Sequence record: MH051917
DNA length: 64,000 nt
Strand: one strand, 5' to 3'
Source of the DNA: Enterobacteria phage vB_EcoM_IME341
In this document: positions 43,621-51,503 of the stretch, one piece after another
Position numbering within the stretch: the stretch's first letter is position 1
Layout: each line of letters begins with the position of its first letter
Notes under the pieces: generated by a model
The model's database searches: none
What the model saw: only the letters and a program-made list of their open reading frames with translations
Told to the model about the DNA's origin: nothing
Made by a program: the position numbers and the translations under genes

Positions 43621-43836
43621 ATGTTTAAGAAATTGATTCAGAAATTATTAGGTACGGAAATGGTCGAAGTGACTTATCGTGTGACTGATGTTTCTCCTCA
43701 TACGGCAGACCATTTAGAACCTTATATCACGACAATTAAAATGCCGAAATATGACGGTGGGTTATCCATTGAAGACCGTCTGCCGGGTTACGGGCACTGG
43801 GCTGATGTCGAAATTATAAGTGTCAAAGATGTCTGA
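43621..43836 (+). CDS. hypothetical protein
   Basis: 71-aa ORF. Confidence 0.4.
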   Translation: MFKKLIQKLLGTEMVEVTYRVTDVSPHTADHLEPYITTIKMPKYDGGLSIEDRLPGYGHWADVEIISVKDV

Positions 43837-44287
43837 GTTAGAAATCAGAAGTAATTTCCCGTGGCCATCATGCGCATTAAGTAACTTTGCTAAATGGCCT
43901 TTCGTTATGGATGGTATCCAATTTGGTGGACTCGAAGGATTCCTCCAAGGATGTAAGGTGAAAAATCATGAACAGCAAAAACGTATATTCAGAATGTCAG
44001 GCCTGGACGCACAAAAAGCTGGACGAACTTATGCTAGAGCTCAGGACCGTGGGACGCTGTTCTGGCTTGGAACTCCCATTTCAAGATACTCTACAGCATG
44101 GAAAGAGTTGTACGAAAATGCTTATTTTGAAGCAGCGATCCAAAACCCAGGATTTCGCGATGCGTTACAATCCACAAAAGGTAGGGTTTTAAAGCATTCG
44201 ATGGCAAGCCACCTTACAGAATGTGATACAATACTAACTGAAAAAGAGTTTATCGACATCCTAAACAAATTGAGAGATTTATTATGA
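43829..44287 (+). CDS. NADAR-like (YbiA-family) protein, putative ADP-ribose / N-glycoside hydrolase
   Basis: SNFAKWPF..DG..F...EGFLQGCK resembles the YbiA/NADAR signature (FSNFA.WP..DG.....EH.FQA.K); assignment from recalled motif only. Confidence 0.45.
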   Translation: MSELEIRSNFPWPSCALSNFAKWPFVMDGIQFGGLEGFLQGCKVKNHEQQKRIFRMSGLDAQKAGRTYARAQDRGTLFWLGTPISRYSTAWKELYENAYFEAAIQNPGFRDALQSTKGRVLKHSMASHLTECDTILTEKEFIDILNKLRDLL

Positions 44288-44922
44288 AACCAGTTATCTT
44301 AACAGATATCGATGGAGTATGTTTAAGTTGGCAGTCTGGCTTGCCTTATTTCGCACAGAAATATAATTTGCCTTTAGAACATATTTTGAATATGATTCAG
44401 GACGAACGTTTCTTATCTCCTGGTGAGCTGTTTAATTGTGATAATGAATTAGGCGCTCGTTTAATCGAGAAATATAATCAGTCGGATTTTATTCGTTATC
44501 TGTCTCCTTACATGGACGCATTAAAACATATCAACAAGCTCAAAAAAGACTTCGATTTTGTAGCCGTGACTGCGCTAGGCGACTCAATTGATGCACTGCT
44601 GAATAGACAATTCAATTTGAATGCTTTGTTCCCTGGCGCATTCAAGGAGATTCTGATGTGTGGTCATTCAGAATCAAAAGAAGACCTCTTCATAAGAGCT
44701 AAAAATACGTACGGTAAACGTATTAAGTTTTATGTTGATGATTTGGCTCACCACTGTGATGCCGCATCTAATGTTCTCATGGATATCCAAGTTTATTGGT
44801 TAGCTCGTGGTGAACGTGATTTTAAACCTAATTTAGCCGTAAAGGTTAATTCATGGGACGATATCGCAGCAATCGAATCCCTTCGTAATAATGCCGCAGT
44901 TGAATGGATTGCTCGAGGTTAA
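44284..44922 (+). CDS. HAD-superfamily hydrolase (putative nucleotidase/phosphatase)
   Basis: motif I ILTDIDGV (DxDG) near N-terminus and later FYVDDLAHH (motif IV DD). Confidence 0.5.
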   Translation: MKPVILTDIDGVCLSWQSGLPYFAQKYNLPLEHILNMIQDERFLSPGELFNCDNELGARLIEKYNQSDFIRYLSPYMDALKHINKLKKDFDFVAVTALGDSIDALLNRQFNLNALFPGAFKEILMCGHSESKEDLFIRAKNTYGKRIKFYVDDLAHHCDAASNVLMDIQVYWLARGERDFKPNLAVKVNSWDDIAAIESLRNNAAVEWIARG

Positions 44923-44923
44923 T

Positions 44924-45202
44924 ATGTTTGTAGTTCATACAATTTCAGACTATGGTCCTACCACTACAATGGATTATGGTCATGTAAACCAGTTTATTCG
45001 TCATGTGAATCATGATTACTCATTTGATGTAAATCCGGCTAAAGACCATCCTGTTTGGCGCGAATGCGTCGAACAGGGATTCATTTATGTCCATTTTATG
45101 TCCAAGTTCAAATCTGATGGGCGAATGAGATTTGTGTTCTCTTATCATAAGCGATTAGACTTGCTTTTGGCTGATGTGGCTTATAATAGAATCCATGACT
45201 AA
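44924..45202 (+). CDS. hypothetical protein
   Basis: ATG 44924 right after HAD stop; 92 aa. Confidence 0.4.
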   Translation: MFVVHTISDYGPTTTMDYGHVNQFIRHVNHDYSFDVNPAKDHPVWRECVEQGFIYVHFMSKFKSDGRMRFVFSYHKRLDLLLADVAYNRIHD

Positions 45203-45212
45203 TGAGGTGATT

Positions 45213-46718
45213 ATGATTTTAGATATCTTAAACGAAATTGCTGCTATTGATTCTACTAAAGCTAAAGAAGCCATTATTGCTCGTGAAAAGGACAATGAGC
45301 TTCTGAAACGTGTTTATCGTATGGCTTATACCCGTCGTTTGAACTATGGTATTAAAAAGTGGCCAGAACCTGGATTTACGTCTCAATCCTTTGGTATGAT
45401 TACTCTTGAAGACCTTCTTGATTTCGCAGAGTTCACATTAGCCACTCGTAAGATTACGGGTAATGCGGCTATTGAAGAACTGGCTCAAATCATTGCTGAT
45501 GCTAAGGCCCCGGATGCCGAGGTATTACGTCGTGTAATGATGCGTGACCTTGAATGCGGTGCATCGATTTCTATTGCTAACAAGGTTTGGAAAGGTTTAA
45601 TCCCTGAACAACCTCAAATGTTAGCTAGTTCTTATGATGAAGATTTGATTAAGAAAAATATTAAATGGCCAGCATTTGCTCAATTAAAAGCTGACGGTGC
45701 TCGTTGTTTTGCCGAAGTTCGTAACGATGGTGTGACATTCCTTACTCGTGGTGGTAATGAATATCAAGGGCTTAATCTTTTGGCTGCTGAATTAATGGCC
45801 ATGACCGAAGAAGCTCGACAACGCCATCCTAATGGTGTTATGATTGACGGCGAATTAGTTTACCACACTCCTAAAGTAGAACCTAAAGCATCTAATGATT
45901 TGTTTAGTATGTTTGATGAGGAACTTCCTGAATTAAGTAAGGCTAAGGAATTCCAAACTGTCGCCGATCGTTCCACGTCAAACGGCTTGGCTAACAAGGC
46001 TCTTCAAGGGACTATTACTCCAGCCGAAGCCGATGGTATGGTATTACAGGCATGGGACTTTGTTCCACTGGATGAAGTTTATTCTGAAGGCAAAATTAAA
46101 GGCCAAAAATACGATGTTCGTTTAGCGGCATTAGTACAAATGGCTGAAGGCTTTACACGTGTCGAGCCTATCGAAACGCAATGGGTTAATAATCTTGAAG
46201 AAGCTAAAGTCGTTTATAAAAAATATGTCGACCAAGGTCTGGAAGGCATTATCCTTAAGAACATGGACTCCTACTGGGAAAACCGCCGTTCTAAGAATCT
46301 TATCAAGTTCAAAGAAGTAATCGATATCGCTTTAGAAGTGGTAGGTTATTATGAACACTCGAAGGACCCTAACAAACTAGGCGGTGTCGAGTTGGTATCA
46401 CGTTGTCGTCGAATTACAAGTGACTGTGGTTCAGGCTTTAAAGATACTACCCATAAGAAAGATAAATCAGGTAAAAAGGTATTGATTCCATTGGAAGACC
46501 GCCCTGATTTAGACCGTGAACTTCTTATGAAGCAAGCTCGTGAAGGTAAGTTGATTGGACGTATTGCTGACTGTGAATGTAATGGTTGGGTTCATTCTAA
46601 AGGACGTACAGATACTGTAGGTATTTTCCTTCCAATCATTAAAGGTTGGCGTTTCGATAAAACAGAAGCTGATACATTTGAAGATGTATTCGGTGATTGG
46701 TCTCAAACTGGACTATAA
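45213..46718 (+). CDS. 30: ATP-dependent DNA ligase
   Basis: MILDILNEIA start; KADGAR adenylation motif; long collinear identity with recalled T4 ligase; track start 45174 is upstream of the SD. Confidence 0.95.
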   Translation: MILDILNEIAAIDSTKAKEAIIAREKDNELLKRVYRMAYTRRLNYGIKKWPEPGFTSQSFGMITLEDLLDFAEFTLATRKITGNAAIEELAQIIADAKAPDAEVLRRVMMRDLECGASISIANKVWKGLIPEQPQMLASSYDEDLIKKNIKWPAFAQLKADGARCFAEVRNDGVTFLTRGGNEYQGLNLLAAELMAMTEEARQRHPNGVMIDGELVYHTPKVEPKASNDLFSMFDEELPELSKAKEFQTVADRSTSNGLANKALQGTITPAEADGMVLQAWDFVPLDEVYSEGKIKGQKYDVRLAALVQMAEGFTRVEPIETQWVNNLEEAKVVYKKYVDQGLEGIILKNMDSYWENRRSKNLIKFKEVIDIALEVVGYYEHSKDPNKLGGVELVSRCRRITSDCGSGFKDTTHKKDKSGKKVLIPLEDRPDLDRELLMKQAREGKLIGRIADCECNGWVHSKGRTDTVGIFLPIIKGWRFDKTEADTFEDVFGDWSQTGL

Positions 46719-46719
46719 T

Positions 46720-46893
46720 ATGAAAGCTTATTTAGAAACAATTGTAATATCACATACTACGGCTGCCCCAGCCGTTTCTCAAACCATTTTAGAATTCATA
46801 GATGAAGCCGCATATAATAAATTTATTGAGGTCTTTGATGGCTATGAAAAAGGCCCGACATTCGAAGTATACCGTACGTTGCTACCACTTTAA
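46720..46893 (+). CDS. small hypothetical protein (57 aa)
   Basis: ATG overlaps ligase stop; followed by terminator. Confidence 0.35.
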   Translation: MKAYLETIVISHTTAAPAVSQTILEFIDEAAYNKFIEVFDGYEKGPTFEVYRTLLPL

Positions 46894-46909
46894 GGCCTTC
46901 GGGCCTTTT
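46893..46909 (+). terminator. rho-independent terminator
   Basis: aggcc-ttcg-ggcct hairpin followed by TTT. Confidence 0.6.
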
Positions 46910-46913
46910 CTGG

Positions 46914-46921
46914 CATAAATA
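46914..46921 (+). promoter_or_regulatory. near-consensus late promoter CATAAATA upstream of alt
   Basis: cataaata about 22 nt upstream of alt ATG; one mismatch to TATAAATA. Confidence 0.35.
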
Positions 46922-46943
46922 AGGTTATTAAAGAGGAATTATT

Positions 46944-49028
46944 ATGACCGAACAATTAAATGAAGTGTTTGAGTCCGAAGGCACACTGCCTACAGTAAAC
47001 TTGAACCCTAAACTTAAAGTACCACAGATTTGGAAGATTGGAGACGTAGAGTCTCAATTAGTGGCGCGTATTGTGTCCTACGCTTCTGAAGGCGATGCCA
47101 TTAAACAAGTTAAATTGGGTGACAAATATGCCCACGTTATCCTTATGAGCCTTTCGGCTAAAGGTTCTCCTGCTGAACTTAAAGGCGGCTTAGGCCCTAC
47201 TCCTATTGATGCCATTAATACCATTTTCGACGTAGTATTCGAACAAGTTAAAAAGCTTCGTATGGATGCCGTGATGTTCCGTTTCCCTACCAAGAAAATG
47301 AAAGGACAAGGCCCTATTGTCCAGAGAATTATCCAACGTTTAGTAACTCAAAAAACCGGCGGGCGTTTCAAAGTAGTTCCAGCTATGTACCAATTTACGG
47401 GCAAGCATACTTATATCTTAGTAGTTCGTAAACAAGCTGATATCGAAGATATCAAAGGTATGCCAGGAATTAATGCCGAATTATATACTAAGGTAGATTC
47501 TGATGTCGGTGAAGTTTATATTTCTAAAAAAGAAGGCGTGCAGGTTACTAAAGAAACTGCTATTGCCGGCAGTATTGCTAAAGTTGAAGAACGTCGCACT
47601 GATAAAATGGTTATAACTAAGACTAAGATTTCTCGTCGTGCCATTGCAGCAAGTCAATCGTTAGAATCTTATCGTAATGAAAGTGAACTGTTTAAGAAAT
47701 ATGAAGCAAATGCTGTAGATTTTAATAAACCGGCGACAGCTCCATTAATCCCTGAGGCCCAGGAAATGGTCACTAATAACAATTCTCCTGCGGCTAAAAA
47801 TAAGGTTGCTAATATAGTAGCTGAAGGTACTGCCGAAGAGTTGCATTATGATTATAAAATGTTTCCTCTTCACGGTATAGGTGAAATCCAAGAGAAAATT
47901 AAAGAGAAAATCCTGTCAGCCATCAAAAACGAACCTTTGACATCTGTTAAAGCTCTAGAAAAATACGCCTCTGTTATTAATACCGTTTTCGAAGAATACA
48001 AAGGCGAATGGTTGGCCCAGCATAACAAAACTCGTAAAGGCCAACCTGACGACCTCTGGAATGAATTGACCGAGTCCAAGTGGAAAGCAGCCAAGACCAA
48101 ATTCATTAAAAAACGCGTATATAGTTTTGCTGGTGTAGGTGGCGGTATTATGGTCGATATTACTATTGCTCGTGAGGGCTCTAAATATACCCCATCACAA
48201 AAGCGCGGCATCAGAGAATATTGCGGTTCAGGATATACAGATATCAATAATCTTCTTTTAGGACGCTATAATCCTCATAACTATGATGTAATGAACGAAA
48301 AATCTATTGAATCTGCAGTTAATAATTTGGATTCTGCTTTTGAAAATGGTGACCGTATACCGGAAGGCATTACAGTTTATCGTGCACAGAGTATGACTGC
48401 TCCTATATACGAAGCACTAGTTAAAAATAAAGTGTTCTATTTTAGAAATTTTGTATCTACTTCTTTAACTCCTATCATTTTTGGACGATTTGGTGTTACA
48501 CACGCCGGTATCGGTCTTTTAGAACCGGAAGTTCGCGATGAATTGACGGTCGATAAAAATGAAGAAGGAATAACTATTAACCCTAATGAAATAAGAGCGT
48601 ATAAAGAAAATCCTGATTACGTTAAAGTTCAAATAGGATGGGCGATTGACGGTGCTCATAAAGTTAATGTGGTATATCCAGGAAGTCTCGGAATAGCAAC
48701 TGAAGCTGAAGTCATTTTACCTCGTGGGTTAATGGTCAAAGTTAATAAAATAACAGATGCTTCTAATAATGACGGAACAACATCTAATAATACAAAACTC
48801 ATCCAAGCCGAAGTTATGACGACAGATGAGCTTCAAGAATCTGTGGTGTATGATGGTGACGTACTAATGGAAACCGGCGAGTTGGTCGTATATCAAGATG
48901 ATTTCGATACTTCCGAAAGCCCTGTATCTTTTGATTCATTTGTTAAATCTACACGGTTTGATGTACTGCCTCTTTTGGCTTCATGCATAGACCTCTATGA
49001 CATCCCAGAAAAATTCATCCAAGGGTAA
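46944..49028 (+). CDS. alt: Alt ADP-ribosyltransferase (head-packaged, modifies host RNA polymerase), copy 1
   Basis: 694 aa; N-terminal and mid regions (ISRRAIA.SQSLES) match recalled T4 Alt; R-S-E motifs YRAQ, FVSTSLT, EAEVILPRG. Confidence 0.85.
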   Translation: MTEQLNEVFESEGTLPTVNLNPKLKVPQIWKIGDVESQLVARIVSYASEGDAIKQVKLGDKYAHVILMSLSAKGSPAELKGGLGPTPIDAINTIFDVVFEQVKKLRMDAVMFRFPTKKMKGQGPIVQRIIQRLVTQKTGGRFKVVPAMYQFTGKHTYILVVRKQADIEDIKGMPGINAELYTKVDSDVGEVYISKKEGVQVTKETAIAGSIAKVEERRTDKMVITKTKISRRAIAASQSLESYRNESELFKKYEANAVDFNKPATAPLIPEAQEMVTNNNSPAAKNKVANIVAEGTAEELHYDYKMFPLHGIGEIQEKIKEKILSAIKNEPLTSVKALEKYASVINTVFEEYKGEWLAQHNKTRKGQPDDLWNELTESKWKAAKTKFIKKRVYSFAGVGGGIMVDITIAREGSKYTPSQKRGIREYCGSGYTDINNLLLGRYNPHNYDVMNEKSIESAVNNLDSAFENGDRIPEGITVYRAQSMTAPIYEALVKNKVFYFRNFVSTSLTPIIFGRFGVTHAGIGLLEPEVRDELTVDKNEEGITINPNEIRAYKENPDYVKVQIGWAIDGAHKVNVVYPGSLGIATEAEVILPRGLMVKVNKITDASNNDGTTSNNTKLIQAEVMTTDELQESVVYDGDVLMETGELVVYQDDFDTSESPVSFDSFVKSTRFDVLPLLASCIDLYDIPEKFIQG

Positions 49029-49031
49029 ATA

Positions 49032-51155
49032 ATGGAAAATTTAAACGAGGTTTTTGATAGTGATTCCGCTAAAAACTATCCAGTAACAAATCTTAAACCG
49101 GGTTCCGGTATCCCACAGATTTTCTCTATCCATGCACCAGGTAATGATAACCTGGTGGCTCGTATGGTATCTTATGCGTCTCAAGGAGACGCTATTAAAA
49201 TGGTTAAGCCAGGCGACAAATACATTCATGTTATTCTAATGAGTTTGTCAAGCAAGGGTGCTCCGGCTGAACTTAAGGGTGGCCTTGGTTCTGACCCACT
49301 TGGTACACTGAATACCATTTTCGATACTGTATACGAACAAGTAAACAAACTTAAAATGGATGCAGTTTTATTCCGTTTCCCTACCAAGAAAATGAAAGGT
49401 AAGGGTCCTACTGTTCAGCGCGTATTGGCACGTTTGGCGATGGCTCGTACCGGTGGTAAGTTTAAAGTTGTTGACAACATGTTCCAATTCAGTGGAAAAC
49501 ATACCTACGTTCTTTTAGTACGTCGTGGTTCTAATATCGAAGATATCAAAGGCATGCCTGAAATTGATGCTGACCTTTATACCAAAGTCGATTCTAAAGT
49601 CGGCGAAGTGTATGTTTCTAAGAAAACCGGCCAGGCCGTAAGTAAGGTCGAAGCCGTAGCGGCATCTATTGCACAGGTTGAAGAGAAACGTACCGATAAG
49701 GCTGTCATTACTCGTACTAAGATTTCACGACGTATGGCCGCAGCCGCGCAGTATTCTACTGCTGAGCCTGAAACTTTGCCCCCTAAAGAATTGCAGGTTT
49801 ATAACGAATTTGAAGCTTCTGTACCGGTTCACACTGCCGAAGGCCCTGAGAACGAAGGTATTGAACAGATTAGTCAGAACTTTAAAAAAGGTGCTATTAC
49901 CAAAATGCGCCAGGCTTCTCAGTTTAAATCTAAGAGCGAGGACCTTGCCAACTTTAGATACACCATTGCTCTCACACATGCTTTAATGACTGATAGTAAA
50001 TTTAAACTAAATTATGCTAATAGAGATAAACAAGGGTTTGAAATTTACTCTAAAAATATGGCATTTTTTAATACAGAAGTCGATAGACTTTTAAGCGGCC
50101 TTTCGCAAATCAATACAACTAATAGTCTGGATATTATTAAGAGAATTGTTAATAACCTGAGTGCCCGTTTTAATGGTTCCCCTTCAGAGAAAGCATCTCG
50201 AATTGCTTTCGCTATGGAAGCCGTTTATAAACTGATTAACGATTCTATTGGTGATGCATATGCTTATTCAGGCGAACTCATTAAACCTAAGGACCTAACC
50301 AAAGACGAAAGCAATGCTATTATTGAATATTGCGCAGCTGAATATGCTCCTATGAACTTATTCCTTTTAGGTAAACCTGAATCCGAAAACAATACAACGG
50401 CTATTAGATTGATTAAGGATTTAGACTCGGCATTTACTAAGGGTATTAAACTTCCTAAGGGTACTATTTTGTATCGTGGTCAGGATTTGCCATACAAAAT
50501 TCTGCGTCATAATATCGATAACAAAACATTTTACTTTAAGAACTTTGTGTCCGCCTCACTAAAGCCTAACATCTTTGGTGAATTCGGTAAAAATTATATG
50601 GCCCTCGACAACCAAGCCGTTTTTGTTGGTGGTGAAGGTTCTTTATCCTCCGCTGATGAGTTGTTTAAATTGGCTAGTGGTAGTTCATCTGATGTGGGTG
50701 AAGTCGATGACGAAGAGGTAGAATGGGAAGAAGACGAGTTTGGTAATCCAATTGCCCCTGAAGGTCCTGCGGATAGAATTGCTGAAATAGGCATGGTTAT
50801 TCGAGGTGCTGAAGCAGTTAAAGTTATCGCTCCTGGTGACCTTACAGAATACGCTGAAGAAGCAGAAATCATCCTTCCGCGAGGATTATTGATGAAGGTT
50901 GATAAAGTAGCGGCTTTTGCTATGAATGATAGGGTATCTCACAAATATCTTATGGAAGCTACTGTGATGTCTCCTTCAGAGCTCAGTGAATCTGTTTACG
51001 ATGGTGACCATCTAATGGAAACCGGTGAAGTTCGTCCGATGGATGGCTTTAAACAGTTCTTGGTTAGTGAATCTGTTTCTGAAAGCAACGAGGCTATGGA
51101 AATCTTAGCAGCATCTTTGGATATCTCTTCTCTACCAAATAAATTCAAAATGTAG
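49032..51155 (+). CDS. Alt-like ADP-ribosyltransferase paralog, copy 2
   Basis: 707 aa; N-terminal ~230 aa similar to copy 1; YRGQ, FVSASLK (SAS instead of STS), EAEIILPRG; acidic insert before the ExE. Confidence 0.8.
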   Translation: MENLNEVFDSDSAKNYPVTNLKPGSGIPQIFSIHAPGNDNLVARMVSYASQGDAIKMVKPGDKYIHVILMSLSSKGAPAELKGGLGSDPLGTLNTIFDTVYEQVNKLKMDAVLFRFPTKKMKGKGPTVQRVLARLAMARTGGKFKVVDNMFQFSGKHTYVLLVRRGSNIEDIKGMPEIDADLYTKVDSKVGEVYVSKKTGQAVSKVEAVAASIAQVEEKRTDKAVITRTKISRRMAAAAQYSTAEPETLPPKELQVYNEFEASVPVHTAEGPENEGIEQISQNFKKGAITKMRQASQFKSKSEDLANFRYTIALTHALMTDSKFKLNYANRDKQGFEIYSKNMAFFNTEVDRLLSGLSQINTTNSLDIIKRIVNNLSARFNGSPSEKASRIAFAMEAVYKLINDSIGDAYAYSGELIKPKDLTKDESNAIIEYCAAEYAPMNLFLLGKPESENNTTAIRLIKDLDSAFTKGIKLPKGTILYRGQDLPYKILRHNIDNKTFYFKNFVSASLKPNIFGEFGKNYMALDNQAVFVGGEGSLSSADELFKLASGSSSDVGEVDDEEVEWEEDEFGNPIAPEGPADRIAEIGMVIRGAEAVKVIAPGDLTEYAEEAEIILPRGLLMKVDKVAAFAMNDRVSHKYLMEATVMSPSELSESVYDGDHLMETGEVRPMDGFKQFLVSESVSESNEAMEILAASLDISSLPNKFKM

Positions 51156-51212: not shown

Positions 51213-51503
51213 ATGAAATCTGCATTCCGTTTTAATGGTCAAGAACTGGTAGTTGAAAACGTTATTCCTGCTTCCGAAGAGTTTGACAGTGCCATTGGTA
51301 ATGAATTGCGTCGAGTTTTCGGTGAAGATAAGCAATTTGATATCCGTCCTGTTGAGAACTTTTCTCAGCCGGAACAAACTGAAAATATCTTTAATGGTGT
51401 AGTGACTGGTCAGCTTGAATCCGAAGCTCCTATTTCAGTTACGGTATTTGTTAAAAAGCAACCATTAACGACGGCGGCAGGTTTCATTTCGTTCCGTAAG
51501 TAA
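51213..51503 (+). CDS. hypothetical protein
   Basis: 96-aa ORF, SD catgaggaga. Confidence 0.45.
   Translation: MKSAFRFNGQELVVENVIPASEEFDSAIGNELRRVFGEDKQFDIRPVENFSQPEQTENIFNGVVTGQLESEAPISVTVFVKKQPLTTAAGFISFRK

Follow-up and report, generated by a model that had tools for sequence, protein, structure and literature searches.

The protein gp30.3 of phage T4, named AdfN, is a guanine-specific DNA ADP-ribosylglycohydrolase that is required for escape from DarTG1 (Johannesman et al., Nat Commun 2025, PMC11825919; Toxins 2024; HIDEN-SEQ 2025). Deletion of adfN makes T2 and T4 about 4 logs more sensitive to DarTG1, RB69 is rescued by ectopic AdfN in a manner abolished by the E36A and K43A mutations, and the purified protein takes ADP-ribose off DarT1-modified DNA (PMC11825919). 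The RB69 allele itself, which is 15 aa shorter at its C-terminus, is inactive. In vitro, phage gp30.3 hydrolyzes guanosine-ADPr and not thymidine-ADPr, and AdfN counters DarTG1, not DarTG2. Phage NADARs are further distinguished by a His at a position that is Glu or Asp in other subfamilies (PMC11125620, PMC11543638). In a T4 Tn-seq study using a single DarTG1 carried on a plasmid in a K-12 host, insertions in 30.3 were strongly depleted under DarTG1 (log2FC -7.25, adj p < 1e-5), and adfN was non-essential without DarTG1. The authors of the AdfN work suspect that its full activity requires an additional T-even protein; a preprint idea that it depends on hydroxymethylated DNA was dropped on publication, and T4-GT7, which has unmodified DNA, is still protected.

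Gene order of the Dhakavirus early block

The window analyzed here is a stretch of 64,000 nucleotides from Enterobacteria phage vB_EcoM_IME341 (MH051917); it belongs to Dhakavirus and has 95.6% nucleotide identity to phage IME08. Between 43621 and 51503 it contains a run of genes (Table 1) that is very probably the Dhakavirus (IME08/JS98-like T-even) version of the T4 early block 30.4-30.3-30.2-30.1-30(ligase)-alt.1-alt. The gene order is identical to that of T4, with synteny extending to IME08, and the profile matches of the ORFs, including those of the ligase and the Alt pair, are far above chance. All the ORFs named in a preliminary description of this region were recovered in place, among them the NADAR-like ORF with its 4-nt overlap with a HAD ORF bearing the DIDGV and DD motifs. 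That description had set these two genes immediately upstream of the ligase; their order stands, but gene 30.1 separates the HAD gene from the ligase, just as alt.1 separates the ligase from altA.

Table 1. Features of the early block in the window
Feature	Position	Strand	Assignment
gene 30.4	43621..43836	+	71 aa; PHROG 2042, E 1.6e-35
adfN (gene 30.3)	43829..44287	+	PF08010; predicted phage-type NADAR guanine-DNA ADP-ribosylglycohydrolase, anti-DarTG1 counter-defence
30.3' ORF	43968..44192	+	74 aa; +1 frame within adfN; annotated in T4 and IME08
gene 30.2	44284..44922	+	212 aa; C1-capped HAD-superfamily phosphatase
gene 30.1	44924..45202	+	DUF3045; Pfam PF11243, E 5.9e-16
gene 30, ATP-dependent DNA ligase	45213..46718	+	most likely start; Pfam PF01068 (DNA_ligase_A_M), E 6e-23; PHROG 114, E 1.7e-160
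alt.1	46720..46893	+	small conserved protein; Pfam PF24647 Phage_blade, E 4.4e-23
altA	46944..49028	+	694 aa; PF03496, E 7.4e-36; PHROG 802, E 1e-261
altB	49032..51155	+	707 aa; PF03496, E 8.9e-18; PHROG 802, E 4e-251
alt.-3 orthologue	51213..51503	+	57% identity to T4 Alt.-3 over 96/96 aa; synteny with T4 and IME08

Two starts in the block deserve comment. In a longer ORF of gene 30.1 the PF11243 match begins at residue 12, and the start at 44924 is preceded by a GAGGT motif at -4. For the ligase the most likely start is 45213 rather than 45174, because GAGGT is found at -4 and the product begins MIL..., as in T4. The gp30.1 and Alt.1 proteins are respectively 43% and 62% identical to their T4 counterparts. 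The alt.-3 orthologue closes the block and is followed by the minus-strand late genes 54 and 48.

The adfN product and its predicted activity

The translated adfN product contains the segment ALSNFAKWPFVMDGIQFGGLEGFLQGCK, quoted in the preliminary description, and matches PF08010 with 215.5 bits (cutoff 36; E 2.7e-64) over positions 2-138 of the 138-position model. It aligns with T4 AdfN without gaps over the full length of 152 aa, at 84% identity with 25 substitutions. In an alignment of 42-43 homologues E36 and H123 are invariant and K43 is at least 90% conserved. The seven-residue spacing of E36 and K43 is that of the catalytic Glu and Lys in PnNADAR (E43/K50) and E. coli C7 (E88/K95), and H123 is the phage-type His of the last strand, a position at which other NADAR subfamilies carry Glu or Asp. 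A structure predicted from an alignment that excluded the T4 sequence (pLDDT 94.1) models a NADAR fold with the C-terminal helix 138-151 in place.

Direct sequence comparisons reach the NADAR superfamily less readily. An expected hit to the Pfam NADAR family PF08719 came out at 13.5 bits (E 0.09), below the gathering threshold of 35.1, and searches of the PDB reached YbiA only weakly (E 0.3 with the single sequence, E 0.009 with the family profile). A few homologues match both PF08010 and PF08719. As these direct tests are weak, the link to NADAR is based on the fold and the catalytic residues. The NCBIfam scan yielded no match for gp30.3, nor for gp30.2, gp30.1, Alt.1 or Alt.-3. Overall, the 152-aa protein belongs among the NADAR-fold enzymes and is the orthologue of T4 30.3.

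From the 84% identity, the equal length, the retained catalytic residues and the shared fold, this protein would in all likelihood act as T4 AdfN does; the functional evidence comes from the T4 and T2 alleles, the phage panels tested having contained no Dhakavirus. The preliminary description had suggested that such a NADAR could be an anti-defence factor against DarT, which is exactly what T4 AdfN shows, and was mistaken in holding that the function of 30.3 had not been established experimentally: it rests on deletion and complementation, on mutants E36A and K43A, on de-ADP-ribosylation in vitro and on an independent Tn-seq screen. Host DarT1 of DarTG1 places ADP-ribose on guanines of the replicating phage DNA and blocks replication; in the proposed mechanism the stand-alone AdfN would then cleave the guanine-ADP-ribose bond by means of E36, K43 and the phage-type H123, releasing ADP-ribose and restoring the DNA, and the phage would escape. 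Of the two DNA adducts that had been put forward as substrates, ADPr-guanine is removed by AdfN and ADPr-thymine is not; with thymine adducts left untouched, DarTG2 would therefore not be countered.

A different function was proposed for phage Macro and NADAR domains by Iyer et al. (2022), in which they would chiefly degrade small immune signals or toxins derived from ADP-ribose, and not DNA adducts. The argument is a bioinformatic one (PMC9503650), and most of the distant gp30.3-type NADARs do lie in unrelated contexts, which makes other roles possible in other phages. For the T-even enzyme this is very unlikely, given that DNA de-ADP-ribosylation and a DarTG1-specific phenotype have been demonstrated directly, and that among the T4 Tn-seq conditions examined 30.3 was depleted only under DarTG1.

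An overlapping gene 30.3' within adfN was also considered and rejected. Identity to the T4 product is 51% in the 30.3' frame and 84% in the main frame, and of 61 divergent NADAR genes 14 keep the 30.3' frame open over 70 aa or more, compared with 9 for the control frame. It is probably not a real gene.

The neighbors of adfN

The 8-nt overlap of the gp30.4 stop with the adfN start, the ATGA shared by the 30.3 TGA (44285-44287) and the 30.2 ATG (44284-44286), and the presence of an AGGA ribosome-binding site before 30.4 and of none before 30.3 or 30.2 together indicate translational coupling along 30.4-30.3-30.2, the coupling of 30.2 to 30.3 being seen in both the window and T4. Such coupling points to co-expression, not to a common pathway.

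The gene 30.2 product, 74% identical to T4 gp30.2 and its orthologue, carries the motifs DIDGV (D8, D10) and YVDDL (D152, D153). Among 41 homologues D8, D10, K132, D152 and D153 are invariant and T96 is at least 90% conserved, and the fold is a Rossmann-like HAD core with a cap; it is a genuine C1-capped HAD phosphatase. In a Pfam scan of the 41 members the Hydrolase, NT5C and HAD_2 matches all fall below threshold. Relative to the NT5C 5'(3')-deoxyribonucleotidases (2jao, 3bwv, 6g2n) and the generic C1-capped HADs, gp30.2 sits under every curated HAD family threshold. A deoxyribonucleotidase label was rejected as unproven: the PF06941 score of 13.4 bits falls short of the 24.8 cutoff, NT5C is touched by 5 of the 41 members (best E 0.0029), the profile reaches the deoxyribonucleotidase 2jao with E 0.13, and deoxyribonucleotidase structures are not among the top fold matches. 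A literature search for 'gp30.2' and 'gene 30.2' found no report.

It had been suggested that the HAD partner might dephosphorylate the product released by the NADAR, such that AdfN and gp30.2 would form a two-step pathway. The coupling of the two genes, their adjacency in 13/13 close T-even loci and the suspicion of an additional T-even protein are all consistent with this idea. It is largely refuted by T4 Tn-seq, in which 30.2 is neutral under DarTG1 (log2FC -0.12, p 0.61, 71 insertion sites) against -7.25 for 30.3, a result by which we also reject gp30.2 as the missing AdfN cofactor. In phylogenetically non-independent sets formed by the best 80 matches to each query, a NADAR within 6 kb is missing from 43 of the 79 gp30.2 loci, and gp30.2 from 60 of the 80 NADAR loci. 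In the gp30.2 set a ligase is nearby in 74 of the 79 loci and a NADAR in 36, hence gp30.2 tracks the ligase more than the NADAR, and in some genomes the gp30.2 and NADAR genes are both present about 60 kb apart. There is also a chemical objection: the NADAR product is free ADP-ribose, and as this contains no phosphomonoester it offers a HAD phosphomonoesterase no group to remove. The phosphates of ADP-ribose form a diester-linked pyrophosphate, which a HAD phosphomonoesterase could attack only after Nudix cleavage. We consider the two-step pathway highly improbable; gp30.2 may instead act on a small phospho-substrate, possibly a nucleotide, with the ligase as its conserved neighbor.

Besides 30.3, the T4 DarTG1 Tn-seq gives a significant result for 30.4 alone (log2FC -1.79, adj p 0.014), and this gene is neutral both under DarTG2 and in M9. 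The window gp30.4 is 47% identical to that of T4, all 34 clusters of its homologues come from T-even coliphages, which are close relatives, and 30.4 overlaps the adfN start in 13/13 close T-even loci. That gp30.4, and not the HAD enzyme, is the additional T-even protein suspected for full AdfN activity in vivo is unlikely. In favor of such a cofactor are the screen result, the neutrality under DarTG2 and in M9, the overlap with adfN and the restriction to the T-even clade, where AdfN activity is clade-specific. The depletion of 30.4 probably reflects polarity, with insertions lowering AdfN levels, as adfN lacks a ribosome-binding site and its translation is probably coupled to that of 30.4.

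The two Alt-type transferases reported downstream of the ligase are both full length and both match ADPrib_exo_Tox and the Alt-like PHROG 802. AltA is the closest counterpart of T4 Alt (49% identity, with the YR-Q, STS and EAE motifs aligned), and AltB, 44% identical to AltA, retains the R, SAS and EAE; the R-S-E motifs read YRAQ/YRGQ, STS/SAS and EAE, against YRSQ, STS and EME in T4 Alt. The middle region of AltB is divergent, its transferase domain carries an acidic insert of about 40 aa, and its PF03496 match is split in two stretches. Like T4 Alt, the paralogues are full-length Alt-type R-S-E transferases at the same position. In T4 all that remains of a second Alt is a pair of short N-terminal fragments (alt.-1 and alt.-2), which match AltB residues 1-58 and 65-115, whereas the window has two intact copies. 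Host proteins, among them the alpha subunit of RNA polymerase, are the described targets of Alt, and AltA and AltB would likewise be protein ADP-ribosyltransferases acting on host proteins.

The presence of these writers about 2.7 kb from the NADAR in T-even phages, and the observation that T4-like NADARs are early genes encoded with ARTs (Iyer et al. 2022, PMC9503650), might suggest that the NADAR reverses or regulates ADP-ribosylation by the phage's own Alt, as had been raised in the preliminary description, and that the block forms a writer-eraser toolkit. Against this, alt is neutral under DarTG1 (log2FC -0.01), adfN is dispensable when DarTG1 is absent, the sole reported activity of phage gp30.3 is on guanine-ADPr in DNA while Alt targets host proteins, and Alt is absent within 6 kb in 65 of the best 80 NADAR loci. 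We regard the proposal as extremely improbable; our literature search found no tests of AdfN on protein substrates, and it is unsupported rather than disproved.

The block as a whole was also examined as an ADP-ribosylation toolkit. Among the best 80 gp30.3-type NADAR matches, which are phylogenetically non-independent and were searched by a method able to detect only Alt-like transferases, gp30.2 lies within 6 kb in 20 loci and Alt in 15, and 60 have neither gp30.2, ligase nor Alt within that distance. Under DarTG1 the depletion in T4 Tn-seq is confined to 30.3 and, to a lesser degree, 30.4 just before it. Neither co-occurrence nor a shared phenotype thus marks the block as a module, and a toolkit is not supported, though gp30.2 or Alt might still make a redundant or condition-specific contribution. 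The phosphatase and the Alt enzymes reflect the usual T-even gene order and form no common machine with adfN.

Significance and comparison with known NADAR systems

The finding is ordinary and already explained: the anti-DarT role of adfN is published, no new NADAR biology emerges, and the importance is modest and mainly one of annotation. The records of IME08, Bp7 and relatives label 30.3 as hypothetical, and the gene could be renamed AdfN, a DNA ADP-ribosylglycohydrolase countering DarTG1. An intact adfN allele predicts plating on DarTG1-carrying E. coli, unlike RB69, which is useful in choosing therapeutic T-even phages.

The window protein and T4 AdfN (PF08010, Phage_30_3) share E36, K43, H123, the intact C-terminal helix and the length of 152 aa, and both genes are flanked by 30.4 and 30.2, which they overlap by 8 nt and 4 nt, respectively. 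One comes from Dhakavirus and the other from Tequatrovirus, and the sequences give no sign of a different function. DarG1 of the BC4488 subfamily (E. coli C7, Geobacter lovleyi 8bat) has Asp as the third catalytic residue in contrast to the His of the phage clade, and is encoded beside darT and protects uninfected cells, whereas T4 AdfN is an orphan that, unlike DarG1, does not neutralize DarT1 in uninfected E. coli and is fully functional only in T-even infection. E. coli YbiA and the Phytophthora NADAR (PF08719) carry Glu in the last strand where phage gp30.3 has His, and YbiA also acts in the hydrolysis of N-glycosides of riboflavin intermediates.

Locus organization and gene starts

The window has the same gene order as T4 from gene 31 through alt.-3, and its DNA is 95.6% identical to that of Escherichia phage IME08 (Dhakavirus, Tevenvirinae). 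All ORF positions reported in the preliminary description were borne out by the ORFs of the window. The product of adfN (gene 30.3) contains the ALSNFAKWPF...DG...EGFLQGCK stretch quoted there; the adfN ATG lies 8 nt within the preceding small ORF, gene 30.4, and the adfN stop codon shares the sequence ATGA with the start codon of the gp30.2 gene. The gp30.2 protein carries DIDGV and YVDDL, and its gene is followed 3' by 30.1 (DUF3045), an ATP-dependent DNA ligase, the small alt.1 and two full-length Alt-type ADP-ribosyltransferases, altA and altB. The alt.1 product matches PF24647 (E 4.4e-23), a recent family in Pfam named 'Phage blade protein'.

Features of the locus in the window, with two features of the T4 locus (L001)
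Feature	Coordinates	Strand	Length	Remark
gene 30.4	43621-43836		71 aa	
adfN (30.3)	43829-44287	+	152 aa	
30.3' ORF	43968-44192	+	74 aa	other frame within adfN
adfN/gp30.2 overlap	44284-44287			
gp30.2	44284-44922		212 aa	
30.1, preferred start	44924			longest-ORF start 44891
ligase, preferred start	45213			longest-ORF start 45174 (IME08 annotation)
alt.1	46720-46893			
altA	46944-49028			
altB	49032-51155			
T4 gp30.2	L001:5475-6311		278 aa	
T4 alt.-1, alt.-2 fragments	L001:1066-1451			

The longest-ORF starts of the ligase and 30.1 are both probably too far upstream; the downstream starts are preferred because each is preceded by GAGGT at -4 and gives a T4-like N-terminus. The 30.3' ORF, annotated in T4 and IME08, is also open in the window. 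Its product shows only 51% identity to the T4 version, versus 84% for the main adfN frame, and divergent NADAR genes keep this frame open no more frequently than a control frame, so 30.3' is probably no real gene.

The anti-DarT protein AdfN

The preliminary description proposed that a phage NADAR could be an anti-defence factor against DarT toxins, and considered that no function had been established for 30.3. The former is right and the latter out of date: this main functional idea is already known rather than new, as T4 gp30.3 now bears the name AdfN, for anti-DarT factor NADAR (bioRxiv 2024, then Johannesman et al., Nat Commun 2025, PMC11825919). Deletion of adfN renders T2 and T4 about 10,000-fold sensitive to DarTG1, the host defence whose DarT1 toxin places ADP-ribose on guanine, and purified AdfN strips ADP-ribose from DarT1-modified DNA. 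RB69, which has a frameshifted adfN allele without the last 15 residues, is rescued by ectopic AdfN, and rescue is abolished by E36A and K43A (PMC11825919). An independent study found that phage gp30.3 hydrolyses guanosine-ADPr and not thymidine-ADPr, and that phage NADARs have a His at the position of a Glu or Asp in other subfamilies. The independent T4 transposon-sequencing screen HIDEN-SEQ likewise found 30.3 conditionally essential on DarTG1 hosts.

The window protein aligns with T4 gp30.3 over all 152 residues, gap-free and at 84% identity. It matches the Pfam family Phage_30_3 (PF08010; E 2.7e-64); the plain Pfam NADAR match that had been expected was not obtained, PF08719 reaching E 0.09, well below threshold. 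The fold and the active site nevertheless agree with a NADAR: an AlphaFold2 model built on the homologue alignment has a mean pLDDT of 94.1, and E36 and H123 never vary among 42-43 homologues, K43 hardly ever. As length, E36, K43 and H123 are all as in T4 AdfN, and the C-terminal helix (residues 138-151) is intact in the model, the window protein is predicted by every checkable feature to be an active-type allele.

Distribution and genetics of the proposed toolkit

The NADAR, HAD and Alt genes had been viewed as an ADP-ribosylation toolkit, in which the HAD partner might act on the released ADP-ribose product and the NADAR might process products of the phage's own Alt enzymes. The NADAR reaction, however, releases free ADP-ribose, a molecule that offers a HAD phosphatase no phosphomonoester to cleave.

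To assess co-occurrence, up to 80 best-matching viral loci per query were fetched around relatives of gp30.2 and of gp30.3, and 6 kb on each side was searched with gp30.2 and gp30.3 profiles and the window ligase and Alt sequences. Within these best-match sets, a ligase is nearby in 74 of the 79 gp30.2 loci and a gp30.3-type NADAR in only 36, 19 of them directly adjacent. Around the 80 NADAR loci, gp30.2 is found in only 20 (13 adjacent, all in close T-even relatives), a ligase in 20 and Alt in 15; 60 have none of the three. In several complete genomes the gp30.2 and NADAR genes lie about 60 kb apart. The NADAR/ART neighbourhood was described before: Iyer et al. (2022) noted that the NADARs of T4-like phages are early genes found alongside ARTs.

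The HIDEN-SEQ supplementary table lists exactly two significant T4 genes under DarTG1: 30.3 (log2FC -7.25, adjusted p < 1e-5) and 30.4 (-1.79, adjusted p 0.014), the latter being the sole second hit among non-essential genes. Gene 30.2, with 71 insertion sites, is neutral (-0.12, p 0.61). It is neutral in minimal medium and under DarTG2 too, and non-essential on K-12; alt (-0.01) and 30.1, alt.1, alt.-1, alt.-2 and alt.-3 (all about 0) are not significant. The toolkit is thus not supported as a functional module, given the poor co-occurrence and the neutrality of 30.2 and alt under DarTG1. Both the neutrality of 30.2 and the chemistry speak against action of the HAD partner on released ADP-ribose, and processing of Alt products finds no support in the neutrality of alt or the scarcity of Alt near NADAR loci. 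Taken together, distribution, transposon sequencing and chemistry indicate translationally coupled genes in an order inherited among T-even phages rather than a functional module; the locus is ordinary and well explained.

The depletion of 30.4 bears on a further property of AdfN, which does not neutralize DarT1 when no infection is under way and gives T5 or Bas25 hardly any help; DNA modification does not account for this T-even limitation, and some other T-even protein may be needed (PMC11825919). Homologues of gp30.4 occur in close T-even coliphages only, and its gene overlaps the adfN start in 13/13 close T-even loci, while none of the 67 more distant NADAR loci carries it. With DarTG2 or in M9, insertions in T4 30.4 are neutral. 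The simplest and likely reading of its depletion is translational polarity, because adfN has no recognizable ribosome-binding site in the window or T4 and 30.4 has one; that gp30.4 is the extra factor is improbable. Putative gp30.4-like ORFs were also detected by profile in three viral contigs fetched around gp30.2 (L019, L020, L029), which have no NADAR within 6 kb.

The HAD enzyme gp30.2 and the Alt pair

Conserved residues and the structural model show gp30.2 to be a genuine HAD enzyme: 41 homologues all share D8, D10, K132, D152 and D153, and nearly all share T96, and in the model (pLDDT 94.5) motif I is followed by an inserted helical C1 cap. As the HAD is capped, we would guess at a small-molecule substrate, possibly a nucleotide; the sole hints of a family are matches to 5'(3')-deoxyribonucleotidases that stay below threshold, and a literature search for gp30.2 found no paper. 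Among T4-like phages gp30.2 ranges from about 200 to about 340 aa, the variation being due to C-terminal tails that are not conserved; T4 gp30.2 has such a tail of roughly 85 residues, absent from the window protein, which is essentially a bare HAD domain.

Aligned with T4 Alt, both altA and altB retain the Arg, Ser-x-Ser and Glu-x-Glu motifs. Of the two, altA corresponds more closely to T4 Alt (49% identity); altB, 44% identical to altA, has a divergent central region and, between the S-x-S and E-x-E motifs of its transferase domain, an acidic stretch of about 40 inserted aa (roughly residues 545-590), possibly a sign of a different target range. In the T4 record, alt.-1 and alt.-2 are annotated as what is left of an ancient duplication of the alt start. 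These fragments match the N-terminus of the window Alts, slightly better for altB; the window therefore keeps an intact second copy lost in T4, having two intact paralogues where T4 retains just two short N-terminal pieces of the second.
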